Assembly (NCBI GenBank): GCA_036339465.1
Contig: JAYZAY010000059.1
Span: 30,611-94,610 of the forward strand
Length of the DNA: 64,000 nucleotides
Direction of reading: 5' to 3'
Source of the DNA: Myxococcota bacterium
GTDB taxonomy: Bacteria > Myxococcota > XYA12-FULL-58-9 > JABJBS01
The position numbers and the translations under genes were made by a program. This document shows, piece after piece, positions 4,401-29,650 of this stretch (its first letter is position 1; each line of letters begins with the position of its first letter). Below the pieces are notes generated by a model. That model was not told the origin of the DNA. It saw only the letters and a list, made by a program, of their open reading frames with translations, and made no database searches.

Positions 4401-4515
4401 AATTGGCGTAGACGGCTACAACGATCTGAAGCTCGGGGATGTCATTGAGTTTTTCATTATCGAGCAAGTAAGCCGAACGCTAGAGGGAGGAGCCAGCGCG
4501 CTCTCTAAGAACTAG
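1432..4515 (+). CDS. infB: Translation initiation factor IF-2
   Basis: N-terminal IF2_N motif ([28 protein letters not shown]), G-domain [22 protein letters not shown] and NKMD motifs. Long low-complexity linker with (EPVAA)x5 repeat. 1027 aa. Confidence 0.95.
1762..1836. repeat. Five tandem copies of 15-bp unit gagcccgttgccgct (last copy diverged) inside infB, encoding (EPVAA)n
   Basis: Direct reading of sequence 1762-1836. The translation is [26 protein letters not shown]. Confidence 0.9.
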
Positions 4516-4525
4516 CTCTCGGTAA

Positions 4526-6643
<2,118 letters not shown>

Positions 6644-12143: not shown

Positions 12144-15100
12144 CTAGAGCTTCTGACTTGATTGGTACAAGACCAAATTATGTTGTGACCTATCGACGGC
12201 CAGAACCAAGGAGCTTAAATCAAAGCGACCGTTGCTGAGGGGAGAAAGGTCTCTGGCAACCTTTTGGAAGGATTCTAGCGTTTGTGAGTTCAAATTCTCA
12301 GGCATCTGCCCGCTTTGAAGTATAAGGGCGGTTGCGTTTACCAGAGCTGATCGCAATTGCCCCCTAAGGGCGGTTCTCGCTGGTTTTTCTAGCCTAGAGG
12401 TATTGTAGCTCTGGGTTGCGCCCCGAATAAACTCCAGTAGACCCGATTGGGCACCGGCAATAAAATAGAGTTTGCTTGCCAGTTCAATATTCGTCTCTAC
12501 TTTGGATAAAACTTCAGCGATGTCCAATATTTCGTCGACGTATTCGAGCTTGCTTAGGGGTGTTGCCAAATCTTCAGGAACACTTGCACCCACGAGATCG
12601 AGGCTTGAAGCGGCTCGGCGTTCTTCGTCTTCTTGAGGCAGAAGCGTACTTAGGTTTTCATGGAGGAACTTTACGTTTTGTTCAAACGAGTCTTTTTGTG
12701 GCATTGTTTCGTTACGCATTAACCACAAGCAGGTGCGGTTCAACGCATGTTCGATTTGCATTCGGATCAGATACTCAATTGTGGGATCTAGATTTGCTTC
12801 AATCTCAAAGAGTTTCTCCTTAACATGATTCATTTCGATGATTTTCGATGCGTAAAGGTGGCTTCGCAAGATGTCGACTGTATTGCCTCCAGTTTGAAGG
12901 AGCATATCGCTAATCCAACTCGCACCCGTATCATTCACGATGGTGTTGGTGAGCATCGTGTCGGCAATATTTCGAGCAAGTGGGTGGGCGAGTATTTCTT
13001 CTGGGAATTTTGATTGGAGCAATTCAGGAAAATAGTCTTGAAGGTAGGGTGTCCAAAGTTCTTTGGGAATCAGAGTTGGGTAGGCAACGAGCTCTTGTCG
13101 AATGAACATTTTTGCGTAAGATGCCAGAGAAGCTAGTTCAGGACGATGGAGTCCGATGCCATTTTGTGCTCTGAGATCTAACTCCGGATCTGTCGGAAGA
13201 TTTGCCAGTTGGCGATCAAATCCTACGTCTGCTGCCAGTTGCTCGATGGCGCGTTGGAAGCGAGGAAGATCTGTTTGAGAGCGTATTTGGTCTAAGCTCA
13301 ACATTCGGCCTTGTTTCCAATTATTTCCGAGAACGGTTTTGTTGACGTCTGCACGCACCTCTTCGAGCAGTATGTTTCGTTGCTCGGAGGTGAGGTCCCC
13401 CCGTTCTTGTGGCTTACTCAATAATATTTTGATATTGACTTCATGATCAGAAAGGTCAACGCCACCACTATTATCGACGGCATCGGTATTTAGCCGGGTC
13501 TCTCTAGCGGCGAGTTGACATCGTCCCTGGGGGGTAATGCCGAGGTTTCCGCCTTCTCCAATCACCTTTGCTCTGACCTGAGGGGCGTCAATGCGTACTT
13601 GGTCGTTGGATGGATCTCCGACTTGAAGATTGGTTTCTTTATCGGATTTAATGTAGGTGCCGATACCCCCATTCCATAGTAGATCGACCGGTGCTTTGAG
13701 GATTTCTTTGATAAGATCCGGTCCACTAAGTTTGTCGTCTTTAATCCCCAAAGCCTTTTTCGCTTCATCGGAAAGGGCAATGGATTTAGAATTTCTGGGA
13801 TAAATGCCTCCACCGGGGCTAAGTTGGTCTTTGGGGTAGTCCTCCCAACTGCTTCTTTTCATGTTGAATAACTTAAGCCGAACTTCATGGCTTGTGGTAG
13901 GATCGGGCTTGGGGTCGATGAAAATATTTCGATGATCGAAAGCGGCCAAAAGCTTCATTGTTTTGGACAGTAAGAGTCCATTGCCAAACACATCTCCGGA
14001 CATATCTCCGATACCAGCAACCGTGATGACGTCCTTTTCCGGATGAAGTCCCATTTCGCGAAAATGTCGTTTAACACTCTCCCATGCCCCTTTGGCGGTG
14101 ACCCCATCGATTTTATGGTCGTATCCATTTGAACCTCCGGACGCAAACGCATCGTCGAGCCAAAATTGATTTTGGCGGGCTACCCCGTTGGCGGTGTCTG
14201 AAAAAGCCGCCGTTCCCTTGTCGGCCGCAACAACAAGATATGAATCATCTTGGTCATAACAAAGGATATTTTCGGGCTTAATGATGTTGCCTTGGGATAG
14301 GTTGTCGGTAACTTCCAAAAGGCCATTAATGAAAATCTTGTATGCTTCAACGCCAGCTTTCCTAAAATCCTGTGGATCGTCGTAAGTTCCCTTAACGATA
14401 AACGCCCCTTTTGCACCTTCCGGAACAATCACAACGTTCTTGAGGTTTTGGGTGTGCATAAGACCCAGTACTTCAGTGCGAAAGTCGCGTCGCCGGTCAG
14501 ACCAGCGAATTCCACCGCGAGCAATCATGCCACCTCGAAGATGCAGTCCCTCCACCAGAGGGTGATGGACGTAGATTTCTCTAAAGGGCCGAGGCTCTGG
14601 TATTCGCACAATTCTTGCGGGTTCCATCTTTAGGACAATGCGTGGTTGTTTGTGTGGATCTCGATTATAAAAATTTGTTCGGAGAGTTGCATCCACAAGG
14701 TTGTAGAGTCGGCGAAAAATCTGATCACTTTGGAGGTCTTGCAATTCGTCGATTTGTTCGAGGAGTGTCCGACTTGCTCTGTCCACGAGTTCTTGGCGTG
14801 TGGGGCAGACTTTGCCCTTTTCGGTTCCCTGTAATTCAGGGTCAAATTTGACGCGGAAGAATTCAGTGATGGAGCGAACCAGGGTCGGGTTTTTCTCCAA
14901 AGTAGACGTAGTAGCGTGTTTGCCATAGGGAGAGCCAAGTTGCCAGGCGTAATGGTGGTAGGCACGTAGTAGACTCACGTAAGTCCAGGGAATATCAGAC
15001 TTCAAGAGAAGTCGATTCATGATGTCGTTTTCACATGCTCCCGCCATGGCGGCTGTGATGGCTGAAGAAAGTCTGTTTCGGCGTGTTGTAAGGTCGACGT

Positions 15101-16937
15101 TAATATTTGCGGCGGGTTTTATTCTAAACGTTGAGACGACGAGGTCGGGCCTTTCCGGAACAAGGACGCTGGTTGGGTATTGGTCAACCACGACGAGGCC
15201 GAGGTTGTCTAGGATCGGTAAAATGTCTGAGAGAAGACTCGAACTTGTCTCCGCCAATCTCAGGCGGGTGATGTCAAGTCGCTGATCTGTTTTTTCCCGG
15301 TAAATCTCGCAGACGTAGGGCATTTCCTCCGTTAGGGACTGTAGGATTTCGATGTCTTTAATGGCCCGTTTTACCGAGGTTTCTTCTCGGTAACGCGCGG
15401 GGAAAGCGTCGCGGTATAGGTAGAATAGTTCACGAGCTTGTGTCTCGCCGAAATGAAGGTAGATTTGATTTTTTAAGCGGATACTCCACGGCTGAGCCTG
15501 CTCTTTGATTTGTTCTTGCAGTTGTTCAACGATGTTTGCAGGGGCGTCGTGGATACCGGTTAAAAAGTAGTGCAGGGAGACAGACTGTCCATTGCCAGAA
15601 TAAACTCCGTCGTCCACAGAGCGTGAACCAAGTTTCAAAGAAAGAAGGCGACGAATGCCGCCTCTTAAATCGTCACTGTAATAAGACCGTGGTAAGATAA
15701 CAAACACAAAAGCCGATTGGTTTTTCTGATCAAGGCTGGTGTGTATCTGAATACCTTCTTCGGCGTCTGAGTTAAGAAGTTCTTCGACAAGCTTAGTAAT
15801 GTTGTTTTCATCGAGGGCAAAGAGATAATCCAAGGGAAGCGAATTAAATGCCTTACGGATTGTGCGGTGCCGGTGGCTCCCTTGCCGTGCATCCGTATTC
15901 TCAAGGATTCGTTGCATCATTTGATTGAGCATCGGGACTGATGCTTTTGGTTCAGCTAGGGCCTCGAAAGTGAAGAGGCCTTCAATGAGTAGAATACCAT
16001 CTGGATTTGCCTCGGCATCAAGTGTGCTGACGGCGACTCGATTAAGGGGCCCGGTTCGATAAAGCCACGACTCGACTTTACTTTTTTGAATCTTAAGAAA
16101 TGGTGCCTTGGCGAGCTCTCGTAAACTGTCTTCCTCGTTGAGGCCCAGTTCAAGACTGGTTTCTACCAAGCTTTCTTGATTACCTATGCCTAGATTCATC
16201 GTATTGTTTTGCGCCTCTTCCTTCAAGGCGATCCATTTTGTGCCTAAGACGACGAAATGCTTTGATTGTAGCCAATCGAGAAATTGCGCGTATGTTTGGT
16301 ATTGGTGATTGTTCTCCTTTTCTGCTTGCGCGTAAAATGTTTTTGCACATTTTGTGAGCGAATCTTGCATGCTGGGATAGTCGAGAACGGAAAGTTGGAT
16401 TTGTTTTAGCCGGGCCGAAATACATTCGACAATGCTCTTTTGTCTTTCGAGTAAGTTCTCACCTTCAATTTCAGCCCAGAGGAAAGATTCGGGCTCTTGA
16501 TCTTCGATTCCTAGCCCAGTGATTCGGCCGGAGGATGTTTCTCGACGAACGGGGATGATCGTGTTGAAACTTCTGAGGATTTTAACGCTTTTCCATTCGA
16601 GGGCCAGGCGAATCACAGAGATAATAAATGGCTGATCTTTGGATGCAGTGATCAAGATAGCGCGTGTATGTGTTCCGTCATCGATGGGCTTCATTTGAAC
16701 GATGATTTCTTCATCACGTCGATCGAGGCAGGTTACAAGTAGTTGCTCGATCGCTGGTAGGAGTTCCTTTGGGGGGTGTTTTTCTAGATAACGGCCATCG
16801 AGCGATCGGGATAGTTGTCTTGCAAAAAGAGGATATAGGTCTTCTAGTTCCTCGGCCTTTGCCGGAACATAGGTGTCGACTGCAGCTAGATAGGCTACGA
16901 CTTTATCGGAAAATCTATGTGATGAGTTCTCTATCAT
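12144..16937 (-). CDS. gdhB: NAD-specific glutamate dehydrogenase, large (~180 kDa) bacterial type
   Basis: 1597-aa ORF. Central catalytic region with Glu/Leu/Phe/Val dehydrogenase-like motifs (GGIRWSDRRRDFRTEVLGL, KGTAAFSDTANG, VAGIGDMSGDVFGNG). The overall length and architecture fit the Bac_GDH family. Confidence 0.85.
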   Translation of the reverse strand: MIENSSHRFSDKVVAYLAAVDTYVPAKAEELEDLYPLFARQLSRSLDGRYLEKHPPKELLPAIEQLLVTCLDRRDEEIIVQMKPIDDGTHTRAILITASKDQPFIISVIRLALEWKSVKILRSFNTIIPVRRETSSGRITGLGIEDQEPESFLWAEIEGENLLERQKSIVECISARLKQIQLSVLDYPSMQDSLTKCAKTFYAQAEKENNHQYQTYAQFLDWLQSKHFVVLGTKWIALKEEAQNNTMNLGIGNQESLVETSLELGLNEEDSLRELAKAPFLKIQKSKVESWLYRTGPLNRVAVSTLDAEANPDGILLIEGLFTFEALAEPKASVPMLNQMMQRILENTDARQGSHRHRTIRKAFNSLPLDYLFALDENNITKLVEELLNSDAEEGIQIHTSLDQKNQSAFVFVILPRSYYSDDLRGGIRRLLSLKLGSRSVDDGVYSGNGQSVSLHYFLTGIHDAPANIVEQLQEQIKEQAQPWSIRLKNQIYLHFGETQARELFYLYRDAFPARYREETSVKRAIKDIEILQSLTEEMPYVCEIYREKTDQRLDITRLRLAETSSSLLSDILPILDNLGLVVVDQYPTSVLVPERPDLVVSTFRIKPAANINVDLTTRRNRLSSAITAAMAGACENDIMNRLLLKSDIPWTYVSLLRAYHHYAWQLGSPYGKHATTSTLEKNPTLVRSITEFFRVKFDPELQGTEKGKVCPTRQELVDRASRTLLEQIDELQDLQSDQIFRRLYNLVDATLRTNFYNRDPHKQPRIVLKMEPARIVRIPEPRPFREIYVHHPLVEGLHLRGGMIARGGIRWSDRRRDFRTEVLGLMHTQNLKNVVIVPEGAKGAFIVKGTYDDPQDFRKAGVEAYKIFINGLLEVTDNLSQGNIIKPENILCYDQDDSYLVVAADKGTAAFSDTANGVARQNQFWLDDAFASGGSNGYDHKIDGVTAKGAWESVKRHFREMGLHPEKDVITVAGIGDMSGDVFGNGLLLSKTMKLLAAFDHRNIFIDPKPDPTTSHEVRLKLFNMKRSSWEDYPKDQLSPGGGIYPRNSKSIALSDEAKKALGIKDDKLSGPDLIKEILKAPVDLLWNGGIGTYIKSDKETNLQVGDPSNDQVRIDAPQVRAKVIGEGGNLGITPQGRCQLAARETRLNTDAVDNSGGVDLSDHEVNIKILLSKPQERGDLTSEQRNILLEEVRADVNKTVLGNNWKQGRMLSLDQIRSQTDLPRFQRAIEQLAADVGFDRQLANLPTDPELDLRAQNGIGLHRPELASLASYAKMFIRQELVAYPTLIPKELWTPYLQDYFPELLQSKFPEEILAHPLARNIADTMLTNTIVNDTGASWISDMLLQTGGNTVDILRSHLYASKIIEMNHVKEKLFEIEANLDPTIEYLIRMQIEHALNRTCLWLMRNETMPQKDSFEQNVKFLHENLSTLLPQEDEERRAASSLDLVGASVPEDLATPLSKLEYVDEILDIAEVLSKVETNIELASKLYFIAGAQSGLLEFIRGATQSYNTSRLEKPARTALRGQLRSALVNATALILQSGQMPENLNSQTLESFQKVARDLSPLSNGRFDLSSLVLAVDRSQHNLVLYQSSQKL

Positions 16938-17106
16938 GGTGTATCATTACCTTGAGGTTGGAATCCTATTCTATTTTACCGCACCTCCACTTCTAAGCCA
17001 GTATTGTAATATTTTTTCATCTGTTTTGAGGCGAGATGGGTGTCTTTATAGGGGATTGGGCATGGTTGTGGTGAGGGGGACAAGGAGAATTTTGTGACTT
17101 GAGAAC

Positions 17107-18573
17107 CTATAAATCTTCAGGAAGCGCATATACCAAGGAGATAGGGGGATTTTCGGTCATTTTACTGATCGCCTCGAACCAAGGGGTGATTTGTAGCCCC
17201 TCTACGACCCAAAGTATCGGACTTTTTGGGGCCAAACTTAGAACCAGATGCGCCAAGACTCTCTCTTGGAAGAGTTTGACGATATGCCCATGGAATCCTC
17301 CAAGAATTGATTCCGGTAGGGTGAGTGTGACTTCGTCCACCTGGATTTCGTTGATATTTTGGGCGCCTTGGAGAATACCTGAAAAGGTTTCTACCAGTTG
17401 ATGGTGGTGAAATTCACTGTCGCTTAATTCATAGCCAAGCTCGTCCGAAATGGTAGGGATGAGGGTTTTTCTGAGTTGAAGAAGTAGTTGTTCAATGGAA
17501 AGCTCAGGGAGCCTGAGGGAGATCCCAGGGGCTTGTGGTGTATCAGCTGAATATTGATAGGCGCTAAATTCCCATAAACCTTGTCGAATATAAGTATAAC
17601 CGTCCTTCTTTTCCCTGTTTCCACCGAATTTCTCAAAAGCATATCGGCTCTCGGGAATGGCTGTGAGCCTAGGGTCACCAAAATCTAGAGTGTTGAAATT
17701 TTCGAGTTCAAAGTCAGGAACAATGCATTTGATTTGTAGATTGGTCTCGGTCGTTGACGATGGGAGTAATTGGGGCAGAGCTTCGTATGAGAATTGTTGT
17801 GTTCGCCCGTTTCCTAGGGCTTCGAAGACAGTGGTTGAAACCAGCTCTGGTTGTTCCCGGGTCAACAAACCGCAGTTTAAGAGTCGCGGCCCAAAAGTGC
17901 AGTCGAATTCAAGGATATTTGGAGTATCGCTTGCCAATGCTTCGGGTTCAGTTGTTCCCAGTGATTCAGCAGGTTCTTCTGCCTGGGAAAGCATTTCTTT
18001 GCTCTCTTGAGTGTGGCACGAGGTCTTTTGTTCGTGAGAGATTTCTGATTCGAGTTTTTCCTTCTGCATCAAGATTTCGAGGTCATTTGATGGGATTTTT
18101 TCTTCGATATTCCTGCGAAGACTCACAGGTTCATCTTGTTCTTCGAACAGTTGTCCGTAGAGGTCGGTCAGACTCTCTGCTTCGAATCGCGCGAGGTCGG
18201 GATTGGCCTCTCTCACCCCCCCTCCTGTGGCTTTGGGGAGATGAGCAATGAGATATCGCTCGATGTGGCGGGAAGCCTTTCCTGCGAATGATGAAAAATG
18301 GAGTCCGATTCCACTTGGTTGTCCGCTTTCATGGGCTTCGGAAAGATTTCGGAGCCAGTGAACGATTCCTATCCCTTGTATTTTCTCCTTGGGACGTTCC
18401 AACTCGAAGTTAAACCGAACGCTATCGCCGATTCGGGGTAATTCTCTGGTTTGAACAAACATTCCCGTGGCGGAGAGATCACGAATTGTGGCGATGACCA
18501 CGACCTGGCGATCCGGATAGCGCATGGTAATTGATATTGCGACAGGCACGCGCGGTGCCCCGGTTTTTTCCAT
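17107..18573 (-). CDS. PilZ-domain protein (c-di-GMP receptor candidate) with ~370-aa uncharacterised C-terminal region
   Basis: N-terminal PilZ motifs: R-rich start (RVPVAISITMRYPDR), DLSATGMFV (DxSxxG), IGLHFSSF. The rest is acidic, S/T/E/Q-rich with no recognised domain. Its start overlaps the alaS stop. Confidence 0.6.
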   Translation of the reverse strand: MEKTGAPRVPVAISITMRYPDRQVVVIATIRDLSATGMFVQTRELPRIGDSVRFNFELERPKEKIQGIGIVHWLRNLSEAHESGQPSGIGLHFSSFAGKASRHIERYLIAHLPKATGGGVREANPDLARFEAESLTDLYGQLFEEQDEPVSLRRNIEEKIPSNDLEILMQKEKLESEISHEQKTSCHTQESKEMLSQAEEPAESLGTTEPEALASDTPNILEFDCTFGPRLLNCGLLTREQPELVSTTVFEALGNGRTQQFSYEALPQLLPSSTTETNLQIKCIVPDFELENFNTLDFGDPRLTAIPESRYAFEKFGGNREKKDGYTYIRQGLWEFSAYQYSADTPQAPGISLRLPELSIEQLLLQLRKTLIPTISDELGYELSDSEFHHHQLVETFSGILQGAQNINEIQVDEVTLTLPESILGGFHGHIVKLFQERVLAHLVLSLAPKSPILWVVEGLQITPWFEAISKMTENPPISLVYALPEDL

Positions 18574-18577
18574 GGTG

Positions 18578-21559
18578 TTAATCCGTTGTGGATGCTTTTT
18601 CCTTTACGAATCCTTCGACTGCTTCAAAGAGGTTTTTGGTCTTTTCTGGGGTTGTCCCACCCCCTTGGGCTAAGTCTGGTTTTCCGCCACCTCGCCCACC
18701 TACGATGGGGGCAAATTCCTTCATCATTTTTCCGGCATTAAACGTTTTCATAGCATCTTTGGTTACTCCAATTAAGAGACCTAGCTTGCCATCATTCTGG
18801 CTCGTTAAGCAAATCACCGACTTTGATAGTTTGGAGCGCAGGCCGTCGGCGAGTTCACGCATGTCTTTGGAAGGGATCTCGCCGAGTTCGACCATAATGA
18901 GCTGATAATTATGTACTTGTTTGGCTTCGCCCAAAAGTTTGTCAGCGAGTGAATTAAGTTCTGAGCTTTGATTTTGCCGTTCTAGTTTTTCGTTTGCTCG
19001 GTTCGTCTTTTGAATGGTTTGGACCGCCCCCAAAAAGTTGCGGCTGGTATCGGTTTTGAGTTGAACGTCACCGAAATCTTGCCCGTTCATGAGGCGCGTT
19101 AGAGCAACCCACGTGTTCCTAATTTCTTTGGCTTCCGGAAATGCAAATTTTTCAGATTGGGGAAATGGGGTTGTTTCATAATTTGCTGATTGGGGAGTAG
19201 TCCCTATCTTTTCGAGTTTCGTTTTTCGTTCTTGGTAGTTTTGCATCAAATTGCGAACCGCGGTGACGATGGTGTCACTATGGAGGGGCTGATCGTGGGT
19301 CGGGTTTTCGAGATACTTTTGAAGCTCTTGAAGTTTCTTGTGTAGGGAAAGGATACGTTTTTGGGCAGCATCGCCCACTTCGGCTTCGATTCGGCGCACG
19401 CCACTCGCGATAGCTTCTTCTTTTTGGATGAGAAGTAACTCTATATCTTTGGTGTTATTGACATGGGTTCCACCACAGAATTCGATTGAATTTCCCATGG
19501 TGATGATGCGAACCAAATCGCCGTATTTTTCTCCAAAGAGCGCCATGGCACCCTTTTCCTTTGCTTTTTCAAAAGGGAGGATATCGGTACTGACAGGAAG
19601 TCTCGCTTGTACCGCCTTGTTGACGATTGCTTCTACATGTTCGAGAGATTCAAACGGTGTTGATTCAAAGTGTGAATAATCAAAGCGTAGTCGTGATGAT
19701 TCAACTAAAGATCCAGCTTGGGCTACATGATTTCCGAGAACGTCTCGAAGTGCTTCATGTAGTAGGTGAGTCGCCGAGTGGTGGGCTCTTAGTTGGCGGC
19801 GTTCATGGACCGCATATCCAGCCCAGACGTGGTCATCCGGGCGGAGGTTCTCGGTATTGGTTTCTCCCCGACCCACAGTAAGTTCAGAGATGGGCTTTCG
19901 GGATTCGCTAATGGTGACAATTGGTTTGCCGTCTAAGTCAAAGATCATGCCCCGGTCGCCGAGCTGTCCGCCGGATTCCCCATAGAATGGAGTCGGATTC
20001 AGAACAACTTCGATGGAGCCCGGTTGGGAATTTTCGGTTTCCTGGTTCCGCTGAATGATGGATTTTATTTGAGTTTTGGTGGTTAGGTATTCAATTCCGT
20101 CAACTTCGAATATCTGCCATTCACCACTACGCTCAGCCAACGGGACTTGTTCATCGGGATAGCCCACAAAAGAAATTTGACCGAGATTTTGGGCGATTTC
20201 CATGTAAACATCGGCCACCGCTTCTTCGCCTATTTTGGAGTTTCGGCTACGTGAGCGCTGTTGTTCCATGGCGGCATCGAAACCTGCATGGTCGATGGAT
20301 AGAGAGTGCTCCGAAGCGATTAGCTCTGTGAGATCTTTGGGAAATCCGTAGGTATCGTAAAGCTTGAAAATAGTTTCGCCGGAAAGTGTTTTTTCTCCAT
20401 CGGGTAAATGACGGATCTCTTCGGATAGGATTCTAAGGCCGGAATCCATCGTTCGACGGAAGTTTTGCTCTTCTAGATCCACTACTTTTTGGATTAAAGA
20501 GGAAGCTTCTTTGAGTTCGGGATAGACAGGACTGAGTTGCTCCACAACGTCTTTACATATTTTACTGAGGAATAGCTTGTCGAAACCCAGGCGATGTCCA
20601 TGGCGAATCGCGCGGCGCATGATTCGCCGCATGACATAGCCCCGACCTTCATTTGAAGGCTGTAGGCCATCAGCAATCAGAAAAGCACTGGTCCGAGCAT
20701 GATCGGCAATGACGCGCATTGAGACATCGTCTTCGGCATTACTCGACTGATATTTCTTGCCGACAAGCTCACTGGTTTTATGTATGAGCTCCTTGAAGGC
20801 ATCGGTATCGTAGTTTGTATTGAATCCAGAGATAACCGCAGCCAATCTTTCTAGTCCCATACCCGTATCCACGGATGGTGCAGGAAGAGGGTTTAGAAGA
20901 CCGTCGGCACTTCGCTCGAATTGCATGAAGACGTTATTCCAAATTTCGATGACTCTACCGTTTTCGAAATCGTCTGGAGTAGGGTCCGAACCTGTTTCGG
21001 TATCAAAGTGTATTTCTGTGCAAGGTCCACAGGGACCCGTGTCTCCCATCATCCAAAAATTGTCTTTCATTCCCATTTCAATGATTCGATGATCTGACAG
21101 TCCAGAAATTTTCTTCCACAGGGACTTAGCTTCGGCGTCTGGGGGGATATCTGAGGTGCCCTCAAAAACAGTCACCCAAAGCTTGTCTTTTGGAACCTGG
21201 AGTTCTTTGGTTAAGAATTCCCAGGCAAAGTGTATCGCTTCTTCTTTGAAATAATCGCCAAAAGAAAAATTTCCAAGCATTTCGAAGAACGTGTGGTGTC
21301 TATTTGTGCGTCCAACTTGTTCGAGGTCGTTGTGTTTACCAGATACTCTAAGACATTTTTGAGAAGTTGTGGCGCGACTGTAGGCGCGTTTTTCGCGGCC
21401 GACAAATAGGTCTTTGAACTGAACCATACCAGCGTTGACAAACATCAAAGTTGGGTCGTTCGCTGGAATCAGGGGCGAGGATTTTACAATGGCGTGGTTT
21501 TGTCGCGCAAAATAATCTAGGAAAGCTTGTCGAAGCTCAATTGTTGTTTTTATTGTCAT
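18578..21559 (-). CDS. alaS: Alanine--tRNA ligase
   Basis: Class II aaRS motifs (FLDYFARQNHAIVKSSPLIPANDPTLMFVNAGM; FEMLGNFSFGDYFK), editing domain HxxxH (HSATHLLHEAL), C-terminal DHHA1 (GGRGGGKPDLAQGGG). The ORF extends to 21658, but the likely start is the Met at MTIKTTIELRQ (21559). ~993 aa, with an insertion in the coiled-coil region. Confidence 0.93.
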   Translation of the reverse strand: MTIKTTIELRQAFLDYFARQNHAIVKSSPLIPANDPTLMFVNAGMVQFKDLFVGREKRAYSRATTSQKCLRVSGKHNDLEQVGRTNRHHTFFEMLGNFSFGDYFKEEAIHFAWEFLTKELQVPKDKLWVTVFEGTSDIPPDAEAKSLWKKISGLSDHRIIEMGMKDNFWMMGDTGPCGPCTEIHFDTETGSDPTPDDFENGRVIEIWNNVFMQFERSADGLLNPLPAPSVDTGMGLERLAAVISGFNTNYDTDAFKELIHKTSELVGKKYQSSNAEDDVSMRVIADHARTSAFLIADGLQPSNEGRGYVMRRIMRRAIRHGHRLGFDKLFLSKICKDVVEQLSPVYPELKEASSLIQKVVDLEEQNFRRTMDSGLRILSEEIRHLPDGEKTLSGETIFKLYDTYGFPKDLTELIASEHSLSIDHAGFDAAMEQQRSRSRNSKIGEEAVADVYMEIAQNLGQISFVGYPDEQVPLAERSGEWQIFEVDGIEYLTTKTQIKSIIQRNQETENSQPGSIEVVLNPTPFYGESGGQLGDRGMIFDLDGKPIVTISESRKPISELTVGRGETNTENLRPDDHVWAGYAVHERRQLRAHHSATHLLHEALRDVLGNHVAQAGSLVESSRLRFDYSHFESTPFESLEHVEAIVNKAVQARLPVSTDILPFEKAKEKGAMALFGEKYGDLVRIITMGNSIEFCGGTHVNNTKDIELLLIQKEEAIASGVRRIEAEVGDAAQKRILSLHKKLQELQKYLENPTHDQPLHSDTIVTAVRNLMQNYQERKTKLEKIGTTPQSANYETTPFPQSEKFAFPEAKEIRNTWVALTRLMNGQDFGDVQLKTDTSRNFLGAVQTIQKTNRANEKLERQNQSSELNSLADKLLGEAKQVHNYQLIMVELGEIPSKDMRELADGLRSKLSKSVICLTSQNDGKLGLLIGVTKDAMKTFNAGKMMKEFAPIVGGRGGGKPDLAQGGGTTPEKTKNLFEAVEGFVKEKASTTD

Positions 21560-21678
21560 GGGCGCTTGGGTAACACAAGGGGGTGGCGGACGGCAATCCG
21601 CACAGTTGAGTTCGGTGGCTCTCGTTGCCCGAAGTGGTACTTCCGTTGCCCAAGACAAAACTGCGAGGGTACGGGTAC

Positions 21679-21861
21679 CTACTCGTCTAAGAGGCCCTTA
21701 TCGACGTTGAAGTAATGGCCATCATCGTCTTTGATTAGATAATGATTTTCCCAGGTTTCTAGGATTTCGATTTCATCGCCGGCCGAAAATTCTGCTTCCT
21801 CTACGTCCCCATCCTTAGTGGTGATAAACTTCAGAGTGGTATCTGTTTTGAAATTTGCCAT
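21679..21861 (-). CDS. Small acidic hypothetical protein (60 aa)
   Basis: ATG at 21861 preceded by GAGGAG RBS. MANFKTDTTLKFITTKDGDVEEAEFSAGDEIEILETWENHYLIKDDDGHYFNVDKGLLDE. Co-oriented immediately upstream of alaS. No family recognised. Confidence 0.4.
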   Translation of the reverse strand: MANFKTDTTLKFITTKDGDVEEAEFSAGDEIEILETWENHYLIKDDDGHYFNVDKGLLDE

Positions 21862-22126
21862 TTCTAGGGTCTCCTCGAAGATCTTCGTGATTGAAACTCG
21901 GTAATCCACTTGGGGAAAAAGCGCAAGAAATCCCAAGGTTCTTTTTTATCGACATGGGACTAAAGTGTTTAATACCAGACACTTAAGGTTTTTTAGACAA
22001 AGGCTAAATTGGCTTCATTTTTTTTCTTGACACCATGACGCGTTGTGTTATAGCGTCTGTTGACGCAGAGCAGCATTTCGGTGTCGGGGGAGGTCTTAAA
22101 GCAGTGGCTTCCCCAAAAATTAGGAG

Positions 22127-22636
22127 ATGACGATGTCAGCAACAAAATCTACAGCTAAAAAGGCGCCCAAGAAGAAATCAGCGTCTGATACACAAAAAAC
22201 TAAGCAAACGCCTACCTTTAAGGCCATTGATTCTAGAGCTAAAGCTACAGAATCGGCCAAAGAGTGGTTGAACATCCTTCAAACGAAAATAAAAAGCTTT
22301 GCCGAAGCCGAAGAGGGATTGGTCGCGGCGGTTAAGGACATGGTCGAAGAAAAAGGTTTGAATGCTTCAGAGGTAAAGAACTCTCTGGATCAATTTATGG
22401 GTCGACTGAAAGCCAATGAGCTTTGGGAGCAAGTGCGAGGTAGCGGCACAGTTGTGACATTGAGCGACTACCGGAACGAGCTGGAGCAGCAAGTTGAGAA
22501 TATTGTAACGCGCGTTTTGTCTGCTTTCCAGATTGCCAAGTTGTCAGACGTAGAAAGTGTTTCTAAGCAATTTAAGTCCTTGAATCGCAAGGTCAATGAG
22601 ATGAACCAGCGACTCAAGACCCTTGAGACCGAATAA
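22127..22636 (+). CDS. Phasin-like (PHA granule-associated family) coiled-coil protein with Lys-rich N-terminal tail
   Basis: Lys/Ala/Thr-rich N-terminus (TAKKAPKKKSASDTQKTKQT) followed by amphipathic helices that resemble phasin family proteins (ELWEQVRGSGTVVTLSDYRNELEQQVENIVTRVL...VSKQFKSLNRKVNEMNQRLKTLE). Confidence 0.5.
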   Translation: MTMSATKSTAKKAPKKKSASDTQKTKQTPTFKAIDSRAKATESAKEWLNILQTKIKSFAEAEEGLVAAVKDMVEEKGLNASEVKNSLDQFMGRLKANELWEQVRGSGTVVTLSDYRNELEQQVENIVTRVLSAFQIAKLSDVESVSKQFKSLNRKVNEMNQRLKTLETE

Positions 22637-22829: not shown

Positions 22830-23216
22830 ATGTTAGCGACCAAGACCACAGAGGGAATCGAAGTTCAGGGAGAGTCTTTTTTTGTTCCTGAGCGATCAGC
22901 ACCGCAGCGAAATGTCTATTTTTTCGCCTATAGGATCCGCATATTGAATCATAGTTTGAAAACGGTTCAGTTATTAACTCGACATTGGGTGATTACCGAC
23001 GGTGCTGGCGTGGTTCAAGAGGTTCGCGGTGCTGGCGTGATTGGAGCTCAGCCAACCCTAGGACCGGGGGACAGTTTTTCCTATACTTCCGCTTGTCCAT
23101 TGGGGACTCCAGTGGGAACCATGGAAGGCTCCTATCGGATGGAGATCGAGTCGGATTCCTTTCTGGATGTTGCGATTCCTGCGTTTACTTTGGCGGCACC
23201 AAATTCGTTGAATTAA
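22830..23216 (+). CDS. apaG: ApaG (DUF525) protein
   Basis: Very characteristic ApaG motifs: YFFAYRIRILN, QLLTRHWVITDGAGVVQEVRGAGVIGAQPTLGPGDSFSYTSACPLGTPVGTMEGSY. Confidence 0.88.
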   Translation: MLATKTTEGIEVQGESFFVPERSAPQRNVYFFAYRIRILNHSLKTVQLLTRHWVITDGAGVVQEVRGAGVIGAQPTLGPGDSFSYTSACPLGTPVGTMEGSYRMEIESDSFLDVAIPAFTLAAPNSLN

Positions 23217-25063: not shown

Positions 25064-26842
25064 GTGATAAATAGAGATTCAGACTTGCCGGTGAATTCAA
25101 TGCACGGGCTTTTGCATATTGTCTATATCGGTTTGCTGGGACTTGGGGGCTGGTTTCTGCTTTTTATGATTCGAGACTTGCTACCGGGGCGATTTGAGCC
25201 ATGGCAGCAGGGTGGTGAGTTTGTTAGTGTATTGGGCTTGGTTACATGTGCTCGCTTGTTGGCCTTCCGGTATATGGGCTCGGCGCGCATAGCGTTGGAT
25301 TCGGTCTTTTATATCGCAATGGTTTTCATTTGGGGGACGTTGGTGGCCGCTTCTCTTGCCGCTTTAACGCTCACTATTGACGCGATTCTTAGGAACCCTG
25401 TGGAGCGCAGAAGTCGTGCGGTGACATATTATCCGCGCCTTCAGCGAGTCGCGGGGATTTTGTATAAGGGTGGCTTACCGGTTTTGGTGCTTATTTTCAT
25501 GGGGGCCTTATTCAGTGATGGGTGGATGCTGGGCTCCGACAACGTTTCACTTATCTGGATGCTCTTTATTTTCGCGAGCGGTTTTGTTTTTGTTCATTAT
25601 GTTTTGGTTGGATGGGGGCACTGGTTGGAAGGCGTAGAAACCGAAGCACTTGGTGATTCGATACCAAAGCTCATTGGGCAAGAAGTTTTTTTGATGCCTT
25701 TAGCTTTGGCCATGGTGTTGGCCTACCGGTACCAAGGACTTGGCTTTTTTCTCTTGTTGGGGGGCGTCGCTTTGATGATCAATGGGGTGATTCGTCGCCT
25801 GGTTATCGTGAGCGAAAAATCAATTCGAAGGGCTTCTGATTTACAAGCGCTCTATGAGGTTGGGCGATCGATGTCTTCGAGTCTTGAGGAAGATAAAATC
25901 GTTCGAAATTTGGCTGCTTCGGTACAAAAGTTGGTGGGTTCTAAATCATACTTTATGCTGGGGCGACTCTCTCAGGGGCGAGATACGGTTCATTGCGTGG
26001 TTTTTGATGGCCGTGGTGATGTGGAAGGAGAGCACTGTTTGCCTGTGGGCCTCAACTTGCCGACGAGAGTGCTCGAGTCTGGTTCACCGATCTTGATCGA
26101 CGATCTCAGATACGAATATGTGCGTTTTGTGGGAGGTGGTTCCTATGGAGACGGACGGTTTTTGTCGTGGCTGGGGGTTCCCATGAAGCTTTACGATGAA
26201 GCCATTGGGCTGATGGCTGTGAAGGGTAAGGTGATGGGGGCTTTTACGAAGGCTGATACAACGGTGTTGTCGGCGATTGCGGATCAGGCAGCCGTGGCAC
26301 TCGAAAATGCCCGACTATATGAAATGGCAACCGTAGACGGGCTCACAAAATTGTTTGTAAGGCGTTATTTTGACCAAAGGCTTCTAGAGGAGTGGCAAAG
26401 ATCACTTCGGTATGAGGCTTGTTTTTCAGTGCTACTATTTGATCTAGATAATTTTAAGAGAATGAACGATCAATATGGCCACCAAGTTGGCGATCAGGTT
26501 TTACGGATGGCGGCTGGGGTAGTTCGGCAAAATATGAGGAGGATGGATACGGCGGCTCGGTATGGGGGGGAAGAATTTGCTTGTATTTTGCCGGGAACTC
26601 AGGCTGGAGACGCCTTTCAGGTTGGAGAACGTATTTGTGCCGAACTTGCTGCAACTGAGATTACCACAAGCGTAGGTACCTTGAACGTTACGGCTTCGAT
26701 TGGTATCGCGTCTTCGGATTTAGAGGAAATGAGTGAGCCGGATAAGCTGCTGACACTTGCAGATGTGGCTTTATACGAGGCAAAAAACCGTGGAAAGAAC
26801 CAAGCTAGGTTGTATTCTAAGAAACTTAACAAGTTTGCTTAA
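25064..26842 (+). CDS. Membrane-anchored GAF-GGDEF diguanylate cyclase
   Basis: ~7 N-terminal TM helices, a central GAF-like region, and a C-terminal GGDEF domain with intact motifs (DGLTKLFVRRYF, RYGGEEFACILPG, ALYEAKNRGKN). Confidence 0.88.
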   Translation: MINRDSDLPVNSMHGLLHIVYIGLLGLGGWFLLFMIRDLLPGRFEPWQQGGEFVSVLGLVTCARLLAFRYMGSARIALDSVFYIAMVFIWGTLVAASLAALTLTIDAILRNPVERRSRAVTYYPRLQRVAGILYKGGLPVLVLIFMGALFSDGWMLGSDNVSLIWMLFIFASGFVFVHYVLVGWGHWLEGVETEALGDSIPKLIGQEVFLMPLALAMVLAYRYQGLGFFLLLGGVALMINGVIRRLVIVSEKSIRRASDLQALYEVGRSMSSSLEEDKIVRNLAASVQKLVGSKSYFMLGRLSQGRDTVHCVVFDGRGDVEGEHCLPVGLNLPTRVLESGSPILIDDLRYEYVRFVGGGSYGDGRFLSWLGVPMKLYDEAIGLMAVKGKVMGAFTKADTTVLSAIADQAAVALENARLYEMATVDGLTKLFVRRYFDQRLLEEWQRSLRYEACFSVLLFDLDNFKRMNDQYGHQVGDQVLRMAAGVVRQNMRRMDTAARYGGEEFACILPGTQAGDAFQVGERICAELAATEITTSVGTLNVTASIGIASSDLEEMSEPDKLLTLADVALYEAKNRGKNQARLYSKKLNKFA

Positions 26843-26887: not shown

Positions 26888-29650
26888 ATGGTAAAGAAAT
26901 CTGAGGCAACGCCAGAAATTTTGGAGGTGGTTGATACAAAGGCCAATGCATTGGTGAGGTTGGCTGATCAGCCTCCAGTGGTGATTCCTGCCATTGTCCA
27001 GACCGAATTGGTCCCTTTTCCCGGTCCGATGGTACCGATTCTCCTGGACACGAAAATGCGTCAGCAAGCAGTTCTTCATGCCAAAAGTAATGCGGGCTTT
27101 TTCTTGTTGATCAATCGAATTCGAAAAGGTGATGAGTCGGAACACCCTCGGGAATTACTCGATATTGAAGGAATCGGGCACGGTTCAGAATTGGCGCGTG
27201 TAGCGGCAGATTTTGTGGCAGAGGAGGCAGTGCATCCTTCTGATGCGATGGAATTAAAGATTGTTGGTGGTGGGGAGGAAGACGACGATGCTTTCGAAGA
27301 AGTTGGGGACGAAGAAAAAGAACTAGAAGATGATGATGAATATCCGATCGAAGAACTTTCAGAGTTGAGTCGAGTGGGAATTCTAGCCAGAGTCCTGAAG
27401 GTTTTCAGGCTCCCCGATGGTCGTATGTCGGCGCTTGTGCACCTTCTACGGCGTGCACAGCCACTTGAGTTGGTCAGAATCCAACCGTTTCCAGTTTTTC
27501 GTGTGACTTACCCGACAGAGATAGTCTCCGATGAGGCGTCTTATGAAGCGACCTATCGGCAGGTTAAATTGACACTGCAATCTTTCTTTGATGCACATAG
27601 TGGAATTCCTGAGGAAGTAAAAATTACGGCTTTGTCTATCGAGTCTCCAGGCATTCTCGCTGATTTTGTAGCCCAGCATTTGTCTCGAGATTTTAGGGAA
27701 CGGCGAGGATTTTTGGAGGAGCTGGATTTAGCCAATCGTATGCGATTGGCGCTGGAAGTATCAATTCGTGAATTAGATATGCTGACGGTTGGCAATCGAA
27801 TTAGCCAGGAGATTCGTGAGAAGGTCGAAAAGCATCAGCGAGAATTTTTGCTCCGAGAACAGCTTAAAGCGATACGAGTCGAGTTGGGAGAAGAAAAGGA
27901 CCCCACTGCTTTAGCAGTAGAAGAACTTAGAGAAAAACTTGAAGCTGCTGGCTTACCCGAACATGCAAGTCATCGAGCAGCAGAAGAGATGAAGCGACTC
28001 CAGCTGATTCCTGCTGAGTCTCCCGAGCATAATCTTATTCGCTCTTATTTAGAATGGATTGCGAGTTTACCCTGGTCAAAGGTCAGTGAGGAGTTGATCG
28101 ATATCTCTAGAGCAAGAGAGGTCTTGGATGAAGACCATTATGGTTTGAAAGACATTAAAGAGAGAATTCTTGAATACTTGGCCGTACGAAAATTGAACCC
28201 ACAAAATAGGGGGACGTTACTGTGTTTTGCCGGACCGCCTGGGGTGGGCAAAACTTCTTTGGGACAATCCATTGCCCGAGCGCTTGGAAGAGAGTTCTAT
28301 CGCTTTTCCGTGGGGGGCATGAGGGATGAAGCTGAGATCAAGGGGCATCGGCGGACCTATATTGGAGCAATGCCTGGTCGTTTGATACAGGCTCTTAAAC
28401 ATGTGGGAACGTCTAATCCGGTGGTGATGCTAGATGAGTTAGATAAAATGGGGAGCGATTGGAGGGGGGATCCATCCAGTGCAATGTTGGAAGTGCTAGA
28501 CCCTTCGCAAAATGAGAATTTCCTTGATCATTATATCGATCTTACCTTTGATCTAAGTCAGGTCATGTTTATTGCGACTGCCAACGTGAAGTCCCAAATA
28601 CCAGGTCCACTTTTAGACCGTCTGGAAGTTATCGATTTGCCTGGATATATTCCAGAAGAGAAGGTCGAGATTGCCCACCGATATTTACTCAAGCGGCAGC
28701 GCAAAGAACACGGCCTCACGAATCGACAAGTTTCGGTTGGAAAGCGTAGTATGAGGCAGTTGATTGAGCAATATACCCATGAGGCAGGGGTTCGTGAGCT
28801 CGATCGTCAAATTGGAAAGCTTTGCCGAAAACGAGCGGTTGAGGTTGTTGGTGGGACCGAGTTTAAGGCTGGTATTGTACCAGATAGCCTTTCTCAATAT
28901 CTGGGCCGGCCCAGAGCTTACGATGATCGCTTAAAGCGCAAGGGGAGTCCCGGATTGGTGACGGGACTGGCCTGGACTCCAGCTGGTGGTGCGGTTCTTT
29001 TCATTGAGGCGGCGCGCATGCCGGGTAAAGGAGTCCTAAAAACGACAGGTAAGCTTGGGGAAGTGATGACCGAATCGACTAAGATTGCCTTGTCTTATGT
29101 TAAGAACCAAGCTGAGGAATTGGGCTTGCCATTGGAGTTTTTCCAGAAAAGCGATATTCATGTTCACTTTCCTGCCGGAGCGGTTCCCAAGGATGGGCCA
29201 TCAGCGGGTATCACAATTACGACAGCGTTGCTTTCATTGCTTACCGAAACACCAGTGGCGCCGCGGCTTGCGATGACTGGGGAAATCTCGCTGGGAGGTG
29301 AGGTTCTGCCTGTGGGGGGGATCCGAGAGAAAGTTGTGGCAGCACGTGCGGAAGGTATCAATACGGTGATTCTGCCTTTGGCAAACGAAGTCGATGTTGA
29401 GGAAATTCCCATTGAAGTTTCTCGAAAGCTCACGTTTGTTTTTGTTTCTAACTATCAAGATGTCATGGAAGTTGCTTTTCCACAGGGATTACACTTACCT
29501 GTCCGGGCGTCAGAGGGTAGTTGTGAAACCAAAACAGCACAGAAGAAACCAAGCACTAGACGAGTCTCGAAAAAAGTACCCACGAAAAAGAAAGTACAGA
29601 CTAAACGCAAAGCTGGTTCTCGGCGGCGTGCAGCATCTTCCAAAACTTAA
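26888..29650 (+). CDS. lon: ATP-dependent Lon protease (LonA) with acidic insert in N-domain and Lys/Arg-rich C-terminal tail
   Basis: LON N-domain, Walker A GPPGVGKTS, sensor/arginine finger, proteolytic Ser in PKDGPSAGIT. C-terminal KKPSTRRVSKKVPTKKKVQTKRKAGSRRRAASSKT. Confidence 0.95.
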   Translation: MVKKSEATPEILEVVDTKANALVRLADQPPVVIPAIVQTELVPFPGPMVPILLDTKMRQQAVLHAKSNAGFFLLINRIRKGDESEHPRELLDIEGIGHGSELARVAADFVAEEAVHPSDAMELKIVGGGEEDDDAFEEVGDEEKELEDDDEYPIEELSELSRVGILARVLKVFRLPDGRMSALVHLLRRAQPLELVRIQPFPVFRVTYPTEIVSDEASYEATYRQVKLTLQSFFDAHSGIPEEVKITALSIESPGILADFVAQHLSRDFRERRGFLEELDLANRMRLALEVSIRELDMLTVGNRISQEIREKVEKHQREFLLREQLKAIRVELGEEKDPTALAVEELREKLEAAGLPEHASHRAAEEMKRLQLIPAESPEHNLIRSYLEWIASLPWSKVSEELIDISRAREVLDEDHYGLKDIKERILEYLAVRKLNPQNRGTLLCFAGPPGVGKTSLGQSIARALGREFYRFSVGGMRDEAEIKGHRRTYIGAMPGRLIQALKHVGTSNPVVMLDELDKMGSDWRGDPSSAMLEVLDPSQNENFLDHYIDLTFDLSQVMFIATANVKSQIPGPLLDRLEVIDLPGYIPEEKVEIAHRYLLKRQRKEHGLTNRQVSVGKRSMRQLIEQYTHEAGVRELDRQIGKLCRKRAVEVVGGTEFKAGIVPDSLSQYLGRPRAYDDRLKRKGSPGLVTGLAWTPAGGAVLFIEAARMPGKGVLKTTGKLGEVMTESTKIALSYVKNQAEELGLPLEFFQKSDIHVHFPAGAVPKDGPSAGITITTALLSLLTETPVAPRLAMTGEISLGGEVLPVGGIREKVVAARAEGINTVILPLANEVDVEEIPIEVSRKLTFVFVSNYQDVMEVAFPQGLHLPVRASEGSCETKTAQKKPSTRRVSKKVPTKKKVQTKRKAGSRRRAASSKT

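Follow-up and report, generated by a model that had tools for sequence, protein, structure and literature searches.

Closest described systems and overview of the locus

The PilZ protein of Pseudomonas aeruginosa is an example of a PilZ protein with an incomplete binding motif. In Myxococcus xanthus, a DnaK or DnaJ domain occurs in four of the 24 PilZ proteins, and the PilZ domain of Pkn1 is predicted not to bind cyclic di-guanosine monophosphate (c-di-GMP) (PMC8316039). CsdK1 (Mxan_3778) and CsdK2 (Mxan_6605) of the same species comprise an N-terminal PilZ domain fused to a well-conserved Hsp70-type nucleotide-binding domain, followed by a linker and a substrate-binding domain (PMC10313047). 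PilZ–Hsp70 fusions have so far been characterised only as such full-length PilZ–DnaK chaperones of M. xanthus. The present analysis concerns a PilZ-domain protein, here called PilZ-X, that is encoded next to the alanine–tRNA ligase gene alaS in a stretch of 64,000 nucleotides (nt) from a Myxococcota bacterium (assembly GCA_036339465.1, contig JAYZAY010000059.1, positions 30,611 to 94,610 of the forward strand). The whole of this stretch is referred to below as the window.

The locus comprises four genes, all on the minus strand of the window: a small open reading frame (ORF) for an acidic protein of 60 amino acids (aa) (21679–21861), alaS (18578–21559), encoding an alanine–tRNA ligase (AlaS, or AlaRS) of 993 aa, the PilZ-X gene (17107–18573, 488 aa), and gdh (12144–16937), which encodes a large NAD-specific glutamate dehydrogenase (GDH) of 1597 aa and closes the conserved string. 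The first three had been reported in a first-pass annotation of this DNA; an ORF check found all of them to be real, at the reported positions and on the same strand. The observation made there is largely confirmed, while its interpretation, a c-di-GMP receptor standing unexpectedly in an aminoacyl-tRNA synthetase operon, is only partly right.

The locus is best explained as a clade-specific, co-directional gene string of uncultured marine Myxococcota, consisting of the genes for the 60-aa SH3-like protein, AlaS, PilZ-X and GDH, and we assign a probability of about 0.55 to this explanation taken as a whole. The PilZ-X family is a clade-specific variant of the known PilZ–Hsp70 architecture. What is new in it is a fast-evolving, probably catalytically dead PilZ–Hsp70 branch that has no substrate-binding domain and is fixed beside alaS in marine Myxococcota.

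Conservation of the gene string

Informative relatives were drawn from protein searches with the small ORF and AlaS and from contig look-ups. The AlaS clade consists of proteins of about 985–1000 aa from uncultured Myxococcota, with Tara Oceans among the sources, that are 55–67% identical to one another. AlaS of the window has no close relative; the closest ones, from Myxococcota metagenome-assembled genomes (MAGs), are 52–55% identical, and the window lineage is the outgroup of the clade. Eleven lineages were compared, namely the window itself, L092/L093, L094, L095, L096, L097, L100, L098, L081, L099, and L101/L102.

In seven of these 11 lineages, whose AlaS proteins are 52–67% identical, alaS is directly followed by a PilZ gene, and in one more (L098) the PilZ gene is one gene removed. 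The alaS–PilZ adjacency is therefore conserved beyond this genome, as the first-pass annotation had proposed to check. The complete order of the 60-aa gene, alaS, the gene for a PilZ protein (533–589 aa) and gdh is found in L092/L093, L094, L095, L096, and L097. L100 has the same order, with a gene for a 353-aa repeat protein separating the 60-aa gene from alaS. In L098 a PDZ-like gene lies between alaS and the gene for a PilZ protein of 644 aa, and gdh is absent. In L081 and L101/L102 alaS is directly followed by gdh with no PilZ gene, and L099 has a different context without alaS–PilZ adjacency. The orientation of the string is constant across the loci. Neither a PilZ protein nor the small ORF was found near alaS in 80 more distant genomes, with AlaS identities of 51% or less. 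The genes upstream of the string vary by locus (phasin-like, ApaG and GGDEF genes, AdoHcyase and citrate synthase genes, or OPT and M10 genes). Such a change of upstream genes around a persistent core suggests that the core has been kept by selection.

In the window, the stop codon of alaS and the start codon of PilZ-X are separated by 4 nt (TAA-CACC-ATG), and no Shine-Dalgarno (SD) sequence precedes PilZ-X. This spacing had been given correctly in the first-pass annotation; the overlap of stop and start announced in its title does not exist. On the coding (minus) strand, alaS and PilZ-X are not separated by any terminator-like site, and scans of positions 16800–22300 with Rfam and with terminator and promoter consensus sequences returned nothing useful. 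The gdh gene is located 169 nt downstream of the PilZ-X gene; across the loci, the spacing between the PilZ gene and gdh is 2–169 nt. In L097 the junctions measure 2 nt each.

PilZ domain and c-di-GMP-binding motifs

The PilZ domain of PilZ-X (residues 6–109, encoded at 18247–18558 on the minus strand) scores 46.6 bits against Pfam PF07238, with a cutoff of 22.5, and 48.3 bits against TIGR02266, which is under the cutoff of 68.7 for that model. All seven positional orthologues match the PilZ profile, and the window domain is homologous to theirs, with Smith-Waterman z scores of 10–30 and tblastn values of 1e-8 to 1e-16.

The register of the binding motifs was set by alignment to a solved PilZ domain, PDB 8u0i (RQYPR...RDLSDTG). 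The RxxxR motif is incomplete in the window protein, where T4 replaces the first Arg and the second one, R8, is present. The first Arg is missing from all seven family members, three of which have RxxR, with the wrong spacing. The [D/N]xSxxG motif is present in the window protein as D32-L-S34-A-T-G37 and occurs in six of the seven members. Since no member has the first Arg of RxxxR, canonical c-di-GMP binding by PilZ-X is doubtful, and the earlier designation of the protein as a c-di-GMP receptor is doubtful with it. The same Arg is missing from M. xanthus CsdK1 (PMC10313047). The question raised earlier, whether the PilZ motifs are degenerate, thus has a divided answer: the profile score and DxSxxG hold up, and the RxxxR half fails. 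Like the PilZ domain of Pkn1 and the PilZ protein of P. aeruginosa, PilZ-X has a PilZ fold recognisable by a hidden Markov model and an incomplete RxxxR half-site. Unlike them, it has a well-conserved DxSxxG half-site, and a large C-terminal region follows the PilZ domain in the same protein.

Hsp70-like domain in the relatives of PilZ-X

A profile built from the C-terminal 313–360 residues of the relatives matched the DnaK nucleotide-binding domain in the PDB with E = 4.7e-6 over DnaK residues 79–353. The remaining 41 PDB hits were almost all Hsp70, MreB or Arp8 proteins, including Sse1, Ssb1, and BiP. One family member hits Pfam MreB_Mbl, and Pfam HSP70 does not detect the domain in the relatives. 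As a positive control, the profile recovered an independent member, L100, at 6e-38. At the level of sequence comparison, PilZ-X of the relatives begins with a PilZ domain, which a disordered linker joins to a nucleotide-binding domain of the Hsp70 type that is very divergent. The linkers are placed similarly to that of the window protein, are rich in Pro, Glu, and Ala, vary in length and cannot be aligned with the window linker.

The phosphate-2 loop DLGGGT is replaced in the relatives by HLGT, DLGL, ELGE or TMTL, and the adenosine motif GG..P by E..WPG. With variable residues in place of these Hsp70 loops, the domain is unlikely to function as an ATPase and is probably an inactive, divergent Hsp70-type nucleotide-binding domain. 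There is no room for a substrate-binding domain, the C-terminal regions being 272–360 aa long and the match ending at about residue 353–361 of DnaK.

The family thus resembles CsdK1 and CsdK2, likewise from Myxococcota, in the fusion of an N-terminal PilZ domain to an Hsp70-type nucleotide-binding domain (PMC10313047). Compared with these two proteins as described in the literature, it has only a highly degenerate nucleotide-binding-like domain of about 310–360 aa and no substrate-binding domain. A CsdK-type Hsp70 domain is weakly recognisable in the positional orthologues, and the tail of the window protein is not recognisably Hsp70-like. The protein type, which had been called unexpected, is less so in view of relatives that are PilZ fusions with an Hsp70-like domain, an architecture already described in Myxococcota.

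C-terminal region of the window protein

The first-pass annotation had noted a C-terminal region of about 370 aa without a recognisable domain. Consistently, no Pfam or NCBIfam model matches residues 110–488 of PilZ-X. About 100 of these residues (116–216, encoded at 17926–18228 on the minus strand), however, form an acidic low-complexity linker rich in Glu, Ser, Pro, and Thr, and the part that is really unmatched comprises residues 217–488 (272 aa, encoded at 17110–17925 on the minus strand), in the position of the Hsp70-like domain of the relatives. A phmmer search of 1.84 billion representative proteins retrieved only the window protein itself, as did a word-based search, whether with the whole protein or with the tail, and a PDB search with residues 217–488 retrieved nothing. 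Looking up contigs by exact sequence was equally fruitless.

The PilZ-X protein of the window is identical to MEE2960991.1 from a "Myxococcota bacterium" MAG, and it recurs with a single substitution in JGI and ENA assemblies; its occurrence in three independent assemblies (NCBI, JGI, and ENA) shows that it is not an assembly artefact. The tail, orphan though it is, is coding. Scored in blocks of 50 codons over codons 1–450, the in-frame codon log-likelihood ratio is positive throughout. The codon log-odds amount to 0.256 per codon overall, as compared to 0.295 for alaS, and the GC contents of the first, second, and third codon positions equal those of alaS and gdh. The orphan sequence of the tail and the low confidence of a single-sequence structure model could point to a decaying gene or an assembly artefact. 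This is scarcely credible for a 488-codon ORF that is intact, has a codon bias comparable to that of alaS in every block and recurs in three assemblies.

Alternative and preferred explanations

Several results weigh against the explanation of the locus given above. The spacing between alaS and the PilZ gene ranges from 2 to 200 nt in the relatives; tight spacing is not conserved, and tight coupling of the two genes is therefore local to the window and L097. The translational link between them that had been proposed earlier holds locally, with 4 nt in the window, and fails as a general rule. Two lineages (L081 and L101) have alaS and then gdh directly, without PilZ-X, which indicates that PilZ-X is dispensable. 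The tail of the window protein showed no similarity to the profile of the relatives: hhalign gave a probability of 0.16, and hmmsearch --max did not report the tail, although about half of its shuffled copies were reported. The z scores of local alignments of the tail with each relative were –0.3 to 1.7, as opposed to 5–55 among the relatives themselves, and the global alignment z was 0.3, as opposed to 15–20 for the controls. With 272 aa against 313–360, the tail is also 40–90 residues shorter, and the single-sequence AlphaFold2 model of the 488-aa protein is uninformative, with a predicted local distance difference test (pLDDT) score of 36.6. Hsp70 motifs picked out by eye in the tail (ILEFDCTFG, IKCIVPDFE, YTYIRQGLWEF, and ILWVVEG..PW) were rejected, since they failed the same hhalign and hmmsearch comparisons and the shuffling controls (z of 1.7 or less), and the reversed sequence scored better. 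The case for the window protein as a diverged homologue is made by its position, the shared PilZ domain and the shared architecture, and by nothing beyond these. The C-terminal 272 residues could, then, have an origin other than the Hsp70-like domain, a rearrangement, a change of frame or a capture having put unrelated or new coding sequence in the place of that domain, with only the PilZ domain being orthologous. The failure of a profile that detects L100 at 6e-38, the lack of any homologue among 1.84 billion representative proteins and the shorter length all fit such a replacement. We nevertheless regard it as rather unlikely. The tail has native codon usage and GC content by codon position, and the architecture of PilZ domain, acidic linker and domain of about 300 aa is kept. 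No other frame of 16938–18300 resembles the Hsp70-like profile, and a hidden frameshift was rejected on the same grounds. Moreover, the family diverges fast enough for true members to be no longer recognisable pairwise (L100 has z scores of 0.5 against L094 and 1.8 against L093), which makes total divergence in the outgroup lineage of the window plausible. Most likely, therefore, the tail has diverged, with deletions, beyond sequence recognition, and this is favoured over domain replacement. A domain can apparently turn orphan inside a conserved gene string.

The adjacency itself might be no more than an ancestral gene order passed down in a clade that is poorly sampled, a single insertion having placed PilZ-X between alaS and gdh with no functional or transcriptional tie to either. 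Its limitation to a single clade (0 of 80 more distant genomes), the variable spacing and the loss of PilZ-X from two lineages in which alaS–gdh is undisturbed are consistent with this view. It is made unlikely by the persistence of the core string amid changing flanking genes, by the unchanging orientation, and by the junctions of L097 (2 nt for all three) and of the window (4 nt without SD), which would be hard to use without coupling. At the opposite extreme, PilZ-X might be a functional c-di-GMP effector that couples the second messenger to the activity or expression of AlaRS, GDH or both, the signal possibly coming from a neighbouring GAF-GGDEF protein. The adjacency to alaS is indeed retained across lineages with AlaS proteins only 52–67% identical and persists in L098 without gdh, the [D/N]xSxxG half-motif is widespread in the family, and a GAF-GGDEF cyclase gene is located 3.2 kb away in the window and lies near the string in L092, L094, and L096 as well. 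However, the loss of the first Arg of RxxxR from every member, with wrongly spaced RxxR in three, the absence of PilZ-X from L081 and L101 with alaS and gdh still adjacent, the absence of a GGDEF gene from the PilZ-X loci L095, L097, and L098, and the lack of any known AlaRS or GDH partner of this architecture render such a role quite improbable. Still less probable, and in our opinion a long shot, is that the SH3-like 60-aa protein and PilZ-X serve specifically as accessories to AlaRS, which is unusually long in this clade, for instance as an acidic SH3 module and an Hsp70-like pseudo-ATPase adaptor that tune its activity, editing or localisation in response to c-di-GMP or stress, with a link to glutamate catabolism via the co-transcribed NAD-dependent GDH. 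If true, this would represent a new kind of synthetase-associated regulatory module.

In the preferred explanation, a conserved string with a divergent PilZ–Hsp70 variant, alaS would have a promoter of its own that yields a leaderless or near-leaderless mRNA. This transcript may carry PilZ-X, and perhaps gdh too, in keeping with the lack of a terminator-like site between alaS and PilZ-X. Having no SD, PilZ-X of the window could be translated by termination–reinitiation after the alaS stop codon. The product would be an adaptor or holdase made of a degenerate PilZ domain and an Hsp70-like domain, nucleotide-independent or regulated in a non-canonical way, and analogous to M. xanthus CsdK1 and CsdK2 rather than to a classical c-di-GMP switch. 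The C-terminal domain of the family would be fast-evolving, its catalytic Hsp70 signatures having been lost. Nothing found here ties PilZ-X mechanistically to aminoacylation or to AlaRS, and the idea of c-di-GMP control over tRNA charging is unsupported.

The alaS gene and its start signal

AlaS of the window scores 891 bits against TIGR00344 and contains the Pfam domains tRNA-synt_2c, tRNA_SAD, and DHHA1. The E. coli enzyme has 876 aa, and the window AlaS is about 115 aa longer. Approximately 160 residues (about 726–885) between tRNA_SAD (683–725) and DHHA1 (886–987) have no Pfam match; the TIGR00344 AlaRS model extends to residue 784.

Two alternative starts had been proposed for alaS, an ATG at 21559 and a TTG at 21658, the latter giving a product of 1026 aa. 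Comparison with the relatives identifies the ATG as the start, because the relatives align from there (MTIKTTIELRQAFLDYF) and because an extension up to the TTG would take in a conserved promoter-like motif. This motif, TTGCCG-N12/13-YGTGYTA, is the only conserved part of the spacer upstream of alaS; its final TA opens a TAnCnn hexamer that ends 6–9 nt before the ATG. In the window, the promoter-like element occupies 21567–21596 on the minus strand, with TTGCCG at 21596–21591, an 18-nt spacer with TGTG, and TACCCA at 21572–21567, and ends 7 nt ahead of the alaS ATG. The motif occurs once in the window (21571–21596, minus strand), where 0.02 occurrences are expected, and each of 15 clade loci has a single copy, in every case directly upstream of alaS (L081 468–493, L094 6281–6306, and L098 6964–6989, among others). 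It is also present in L098 and L101/L102, whose available upstream sequence (66–83 nt in L101/L102) shows no small ORF. No SD precedes alaS in any locus. The motif may be interpreted as an extended –10 promoter of the sigma-70 type, and its conservation predicts a leaderless or near-leaderless alaS mRNA.

The gap between the small ORF and alaS is 119 nt in the window. This distance, together with a conserved promoter-like motif of its own and no SD for alaS, indicates that the two genes are not translationally coupled, so the link postulated earlier between the small ORF and alaS has to be abandoned. The spacer contains an 8-nt direct repeat, GGGCAACG, at 21651–21644 and 21630–21623 (minus strand, 21 nt apart), with a small hairpin, GAAGT-ACC-ACTTC, between the two copies; the repeat was not seen in the spacers of the relatives.

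In the relatives, a palindrome, GCTAGC or CTAGCTAG, falls within the –10 region and might double as an operator; the window copy of the motif contains no such palindrome. In E. coli, the genes are arranged in the order recX-alaS-csrA, and Putney and Schimmel reportedly found in 1981 that E. coli AlaRS represses its own gene at a palindrome around the transcription start. The two regions are alike in that alaS has its own promoter, a putative one in the clade, a gene for a small (about 60 aa) beta-rich protein adjoins it, and a partly palindromic conserved sequence, GCTAGC or CTAGCTAG in the relatives, is located at the presumed start site. They differ in that the small gene of the clade lies upstream and encodes an acidic, SH3-like protein unrelated to CsrA, the downstream genes are not the same, and the alaS mRNA of the clade is presumed to be leaderless. 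Autorepression in the clade would be a proposal by analogy with E. coli.

The small 60-aa gene

The acidic 60-aa ORF with a GAGGAG ribosome-binding site was confirmed at its reported location. The SD sequence GAGGAG lies at 21876–21871, 9 nt ahead of the ATG; if a TTG at 21936 were used instead, the product would have 85 aa. Homologues are present in at least 13 lineages, every one of them exactly 60 aa long and sharing 52–78% identity with the copy in the window. An AGGAG-type SD lies 8–11 nt ahead of nearly all of them. Divergence is 0.65–1.0 at synonymous sites (pS), which are saturated, and 0.15–0.32 at nonsynonymous sites (pN). As evidenced by this pattern, the small ORF is a real protein-coding gene under strong purifying selection and has passed the conservation check suggested for it. 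In several lineages the protein is better conserved than AlaRS of the same contig (in L094, 69 versus 54% identity), making the family as conserved as AlaRS or more so. A metagenome scan with the small ORF yielded five further loci, each too short to extend past alaS.

The small protein has no Pfam or NCBIfam match, Pfam SH3 families included. As a protein of a single domain, it is predicted to fold into an SH3-like beta-barrel of five to six strands. Its structural matches are bacterial SH3b and eukaryotic SH3 domains, such as the C-terminal domain of TagH (5bnd) and NlpC/P60 (3h41), to which it is only 8–20% identical. It differs from these domains in being stand-alone, cytoplasmic, very acidic and only 60 aa long.

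A role as an alanine-sensing leader peptide or attenuator was considered and rejected. The small ORF contains only three Ala codons and no Ala run, and encodes a conserved folded protein. The distance from the small ORF to alaS is 23 to 261 nt, and the sequence in between is unconserved except for the promoter-like motif and has no Rfam match in the window. In L090 no alaS start was found in the approximately 400 nt scanned downstream of the small gene, and in L100 another gene intervenes.

The presence of a different ORF after the 60-aa gene in L090 (small gene at 256–438) shows that the small gene is not strictly tied to alaS. The N terminus of this ORF, MAHSLDAILKPRSVAVIGASRNPGAIG, resembles by eye an enzyme of the CoA-binding/NDP-forming acyl-CoA synthetase type and is not alaS. 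The intervening gene of L100 (6657–7718), which no other lineage has at this position, codes for a 353-aa protein with about five near-identical tandem repeats, KEALDNISAGIGTPEQLHMKERLEWGVANAVFTKEDVEKATTEGKRVKA, the longest exact repeated block being 59 aa; no Pfam hit was recorded for it.

Neighbouring genes

The gdh product matches Pfam Bac_GDH_CD with 726 bits and contains GDH_C, ACT, and HM domains. Where PilZ-X is absent, 229–250 nt of non-coding sequence lie between alaS and gdh (L081 3501–3750 and L101 3075–3303). A tblastn search of L081 with the window protein, made for this lineage only and not for L101, revealed no PilZ remnant.

On the other side of the string, the window encodes a GAF-GGDEF diguanylate cyclase (25100–26839, plus strand) and a Lon protease (26888–29647, plus strand), which lie beyond divergent phasin-like and ApaG genes (22127–22636 and 22830–23216). 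The GAF-GGDEF and Lon genes are also neighbours of the string in L092, L094, and L096, which makes the c-di-GMP synthase part of a wider conserved neighbourhood. In L100, a region upstream of the cluster (3385–4943, minus strand) encodes a stand-alone PilZ protein of 124 aa beside a pair consisting of a TacA1-type antitoxin and a GNAT acetyltransferase.

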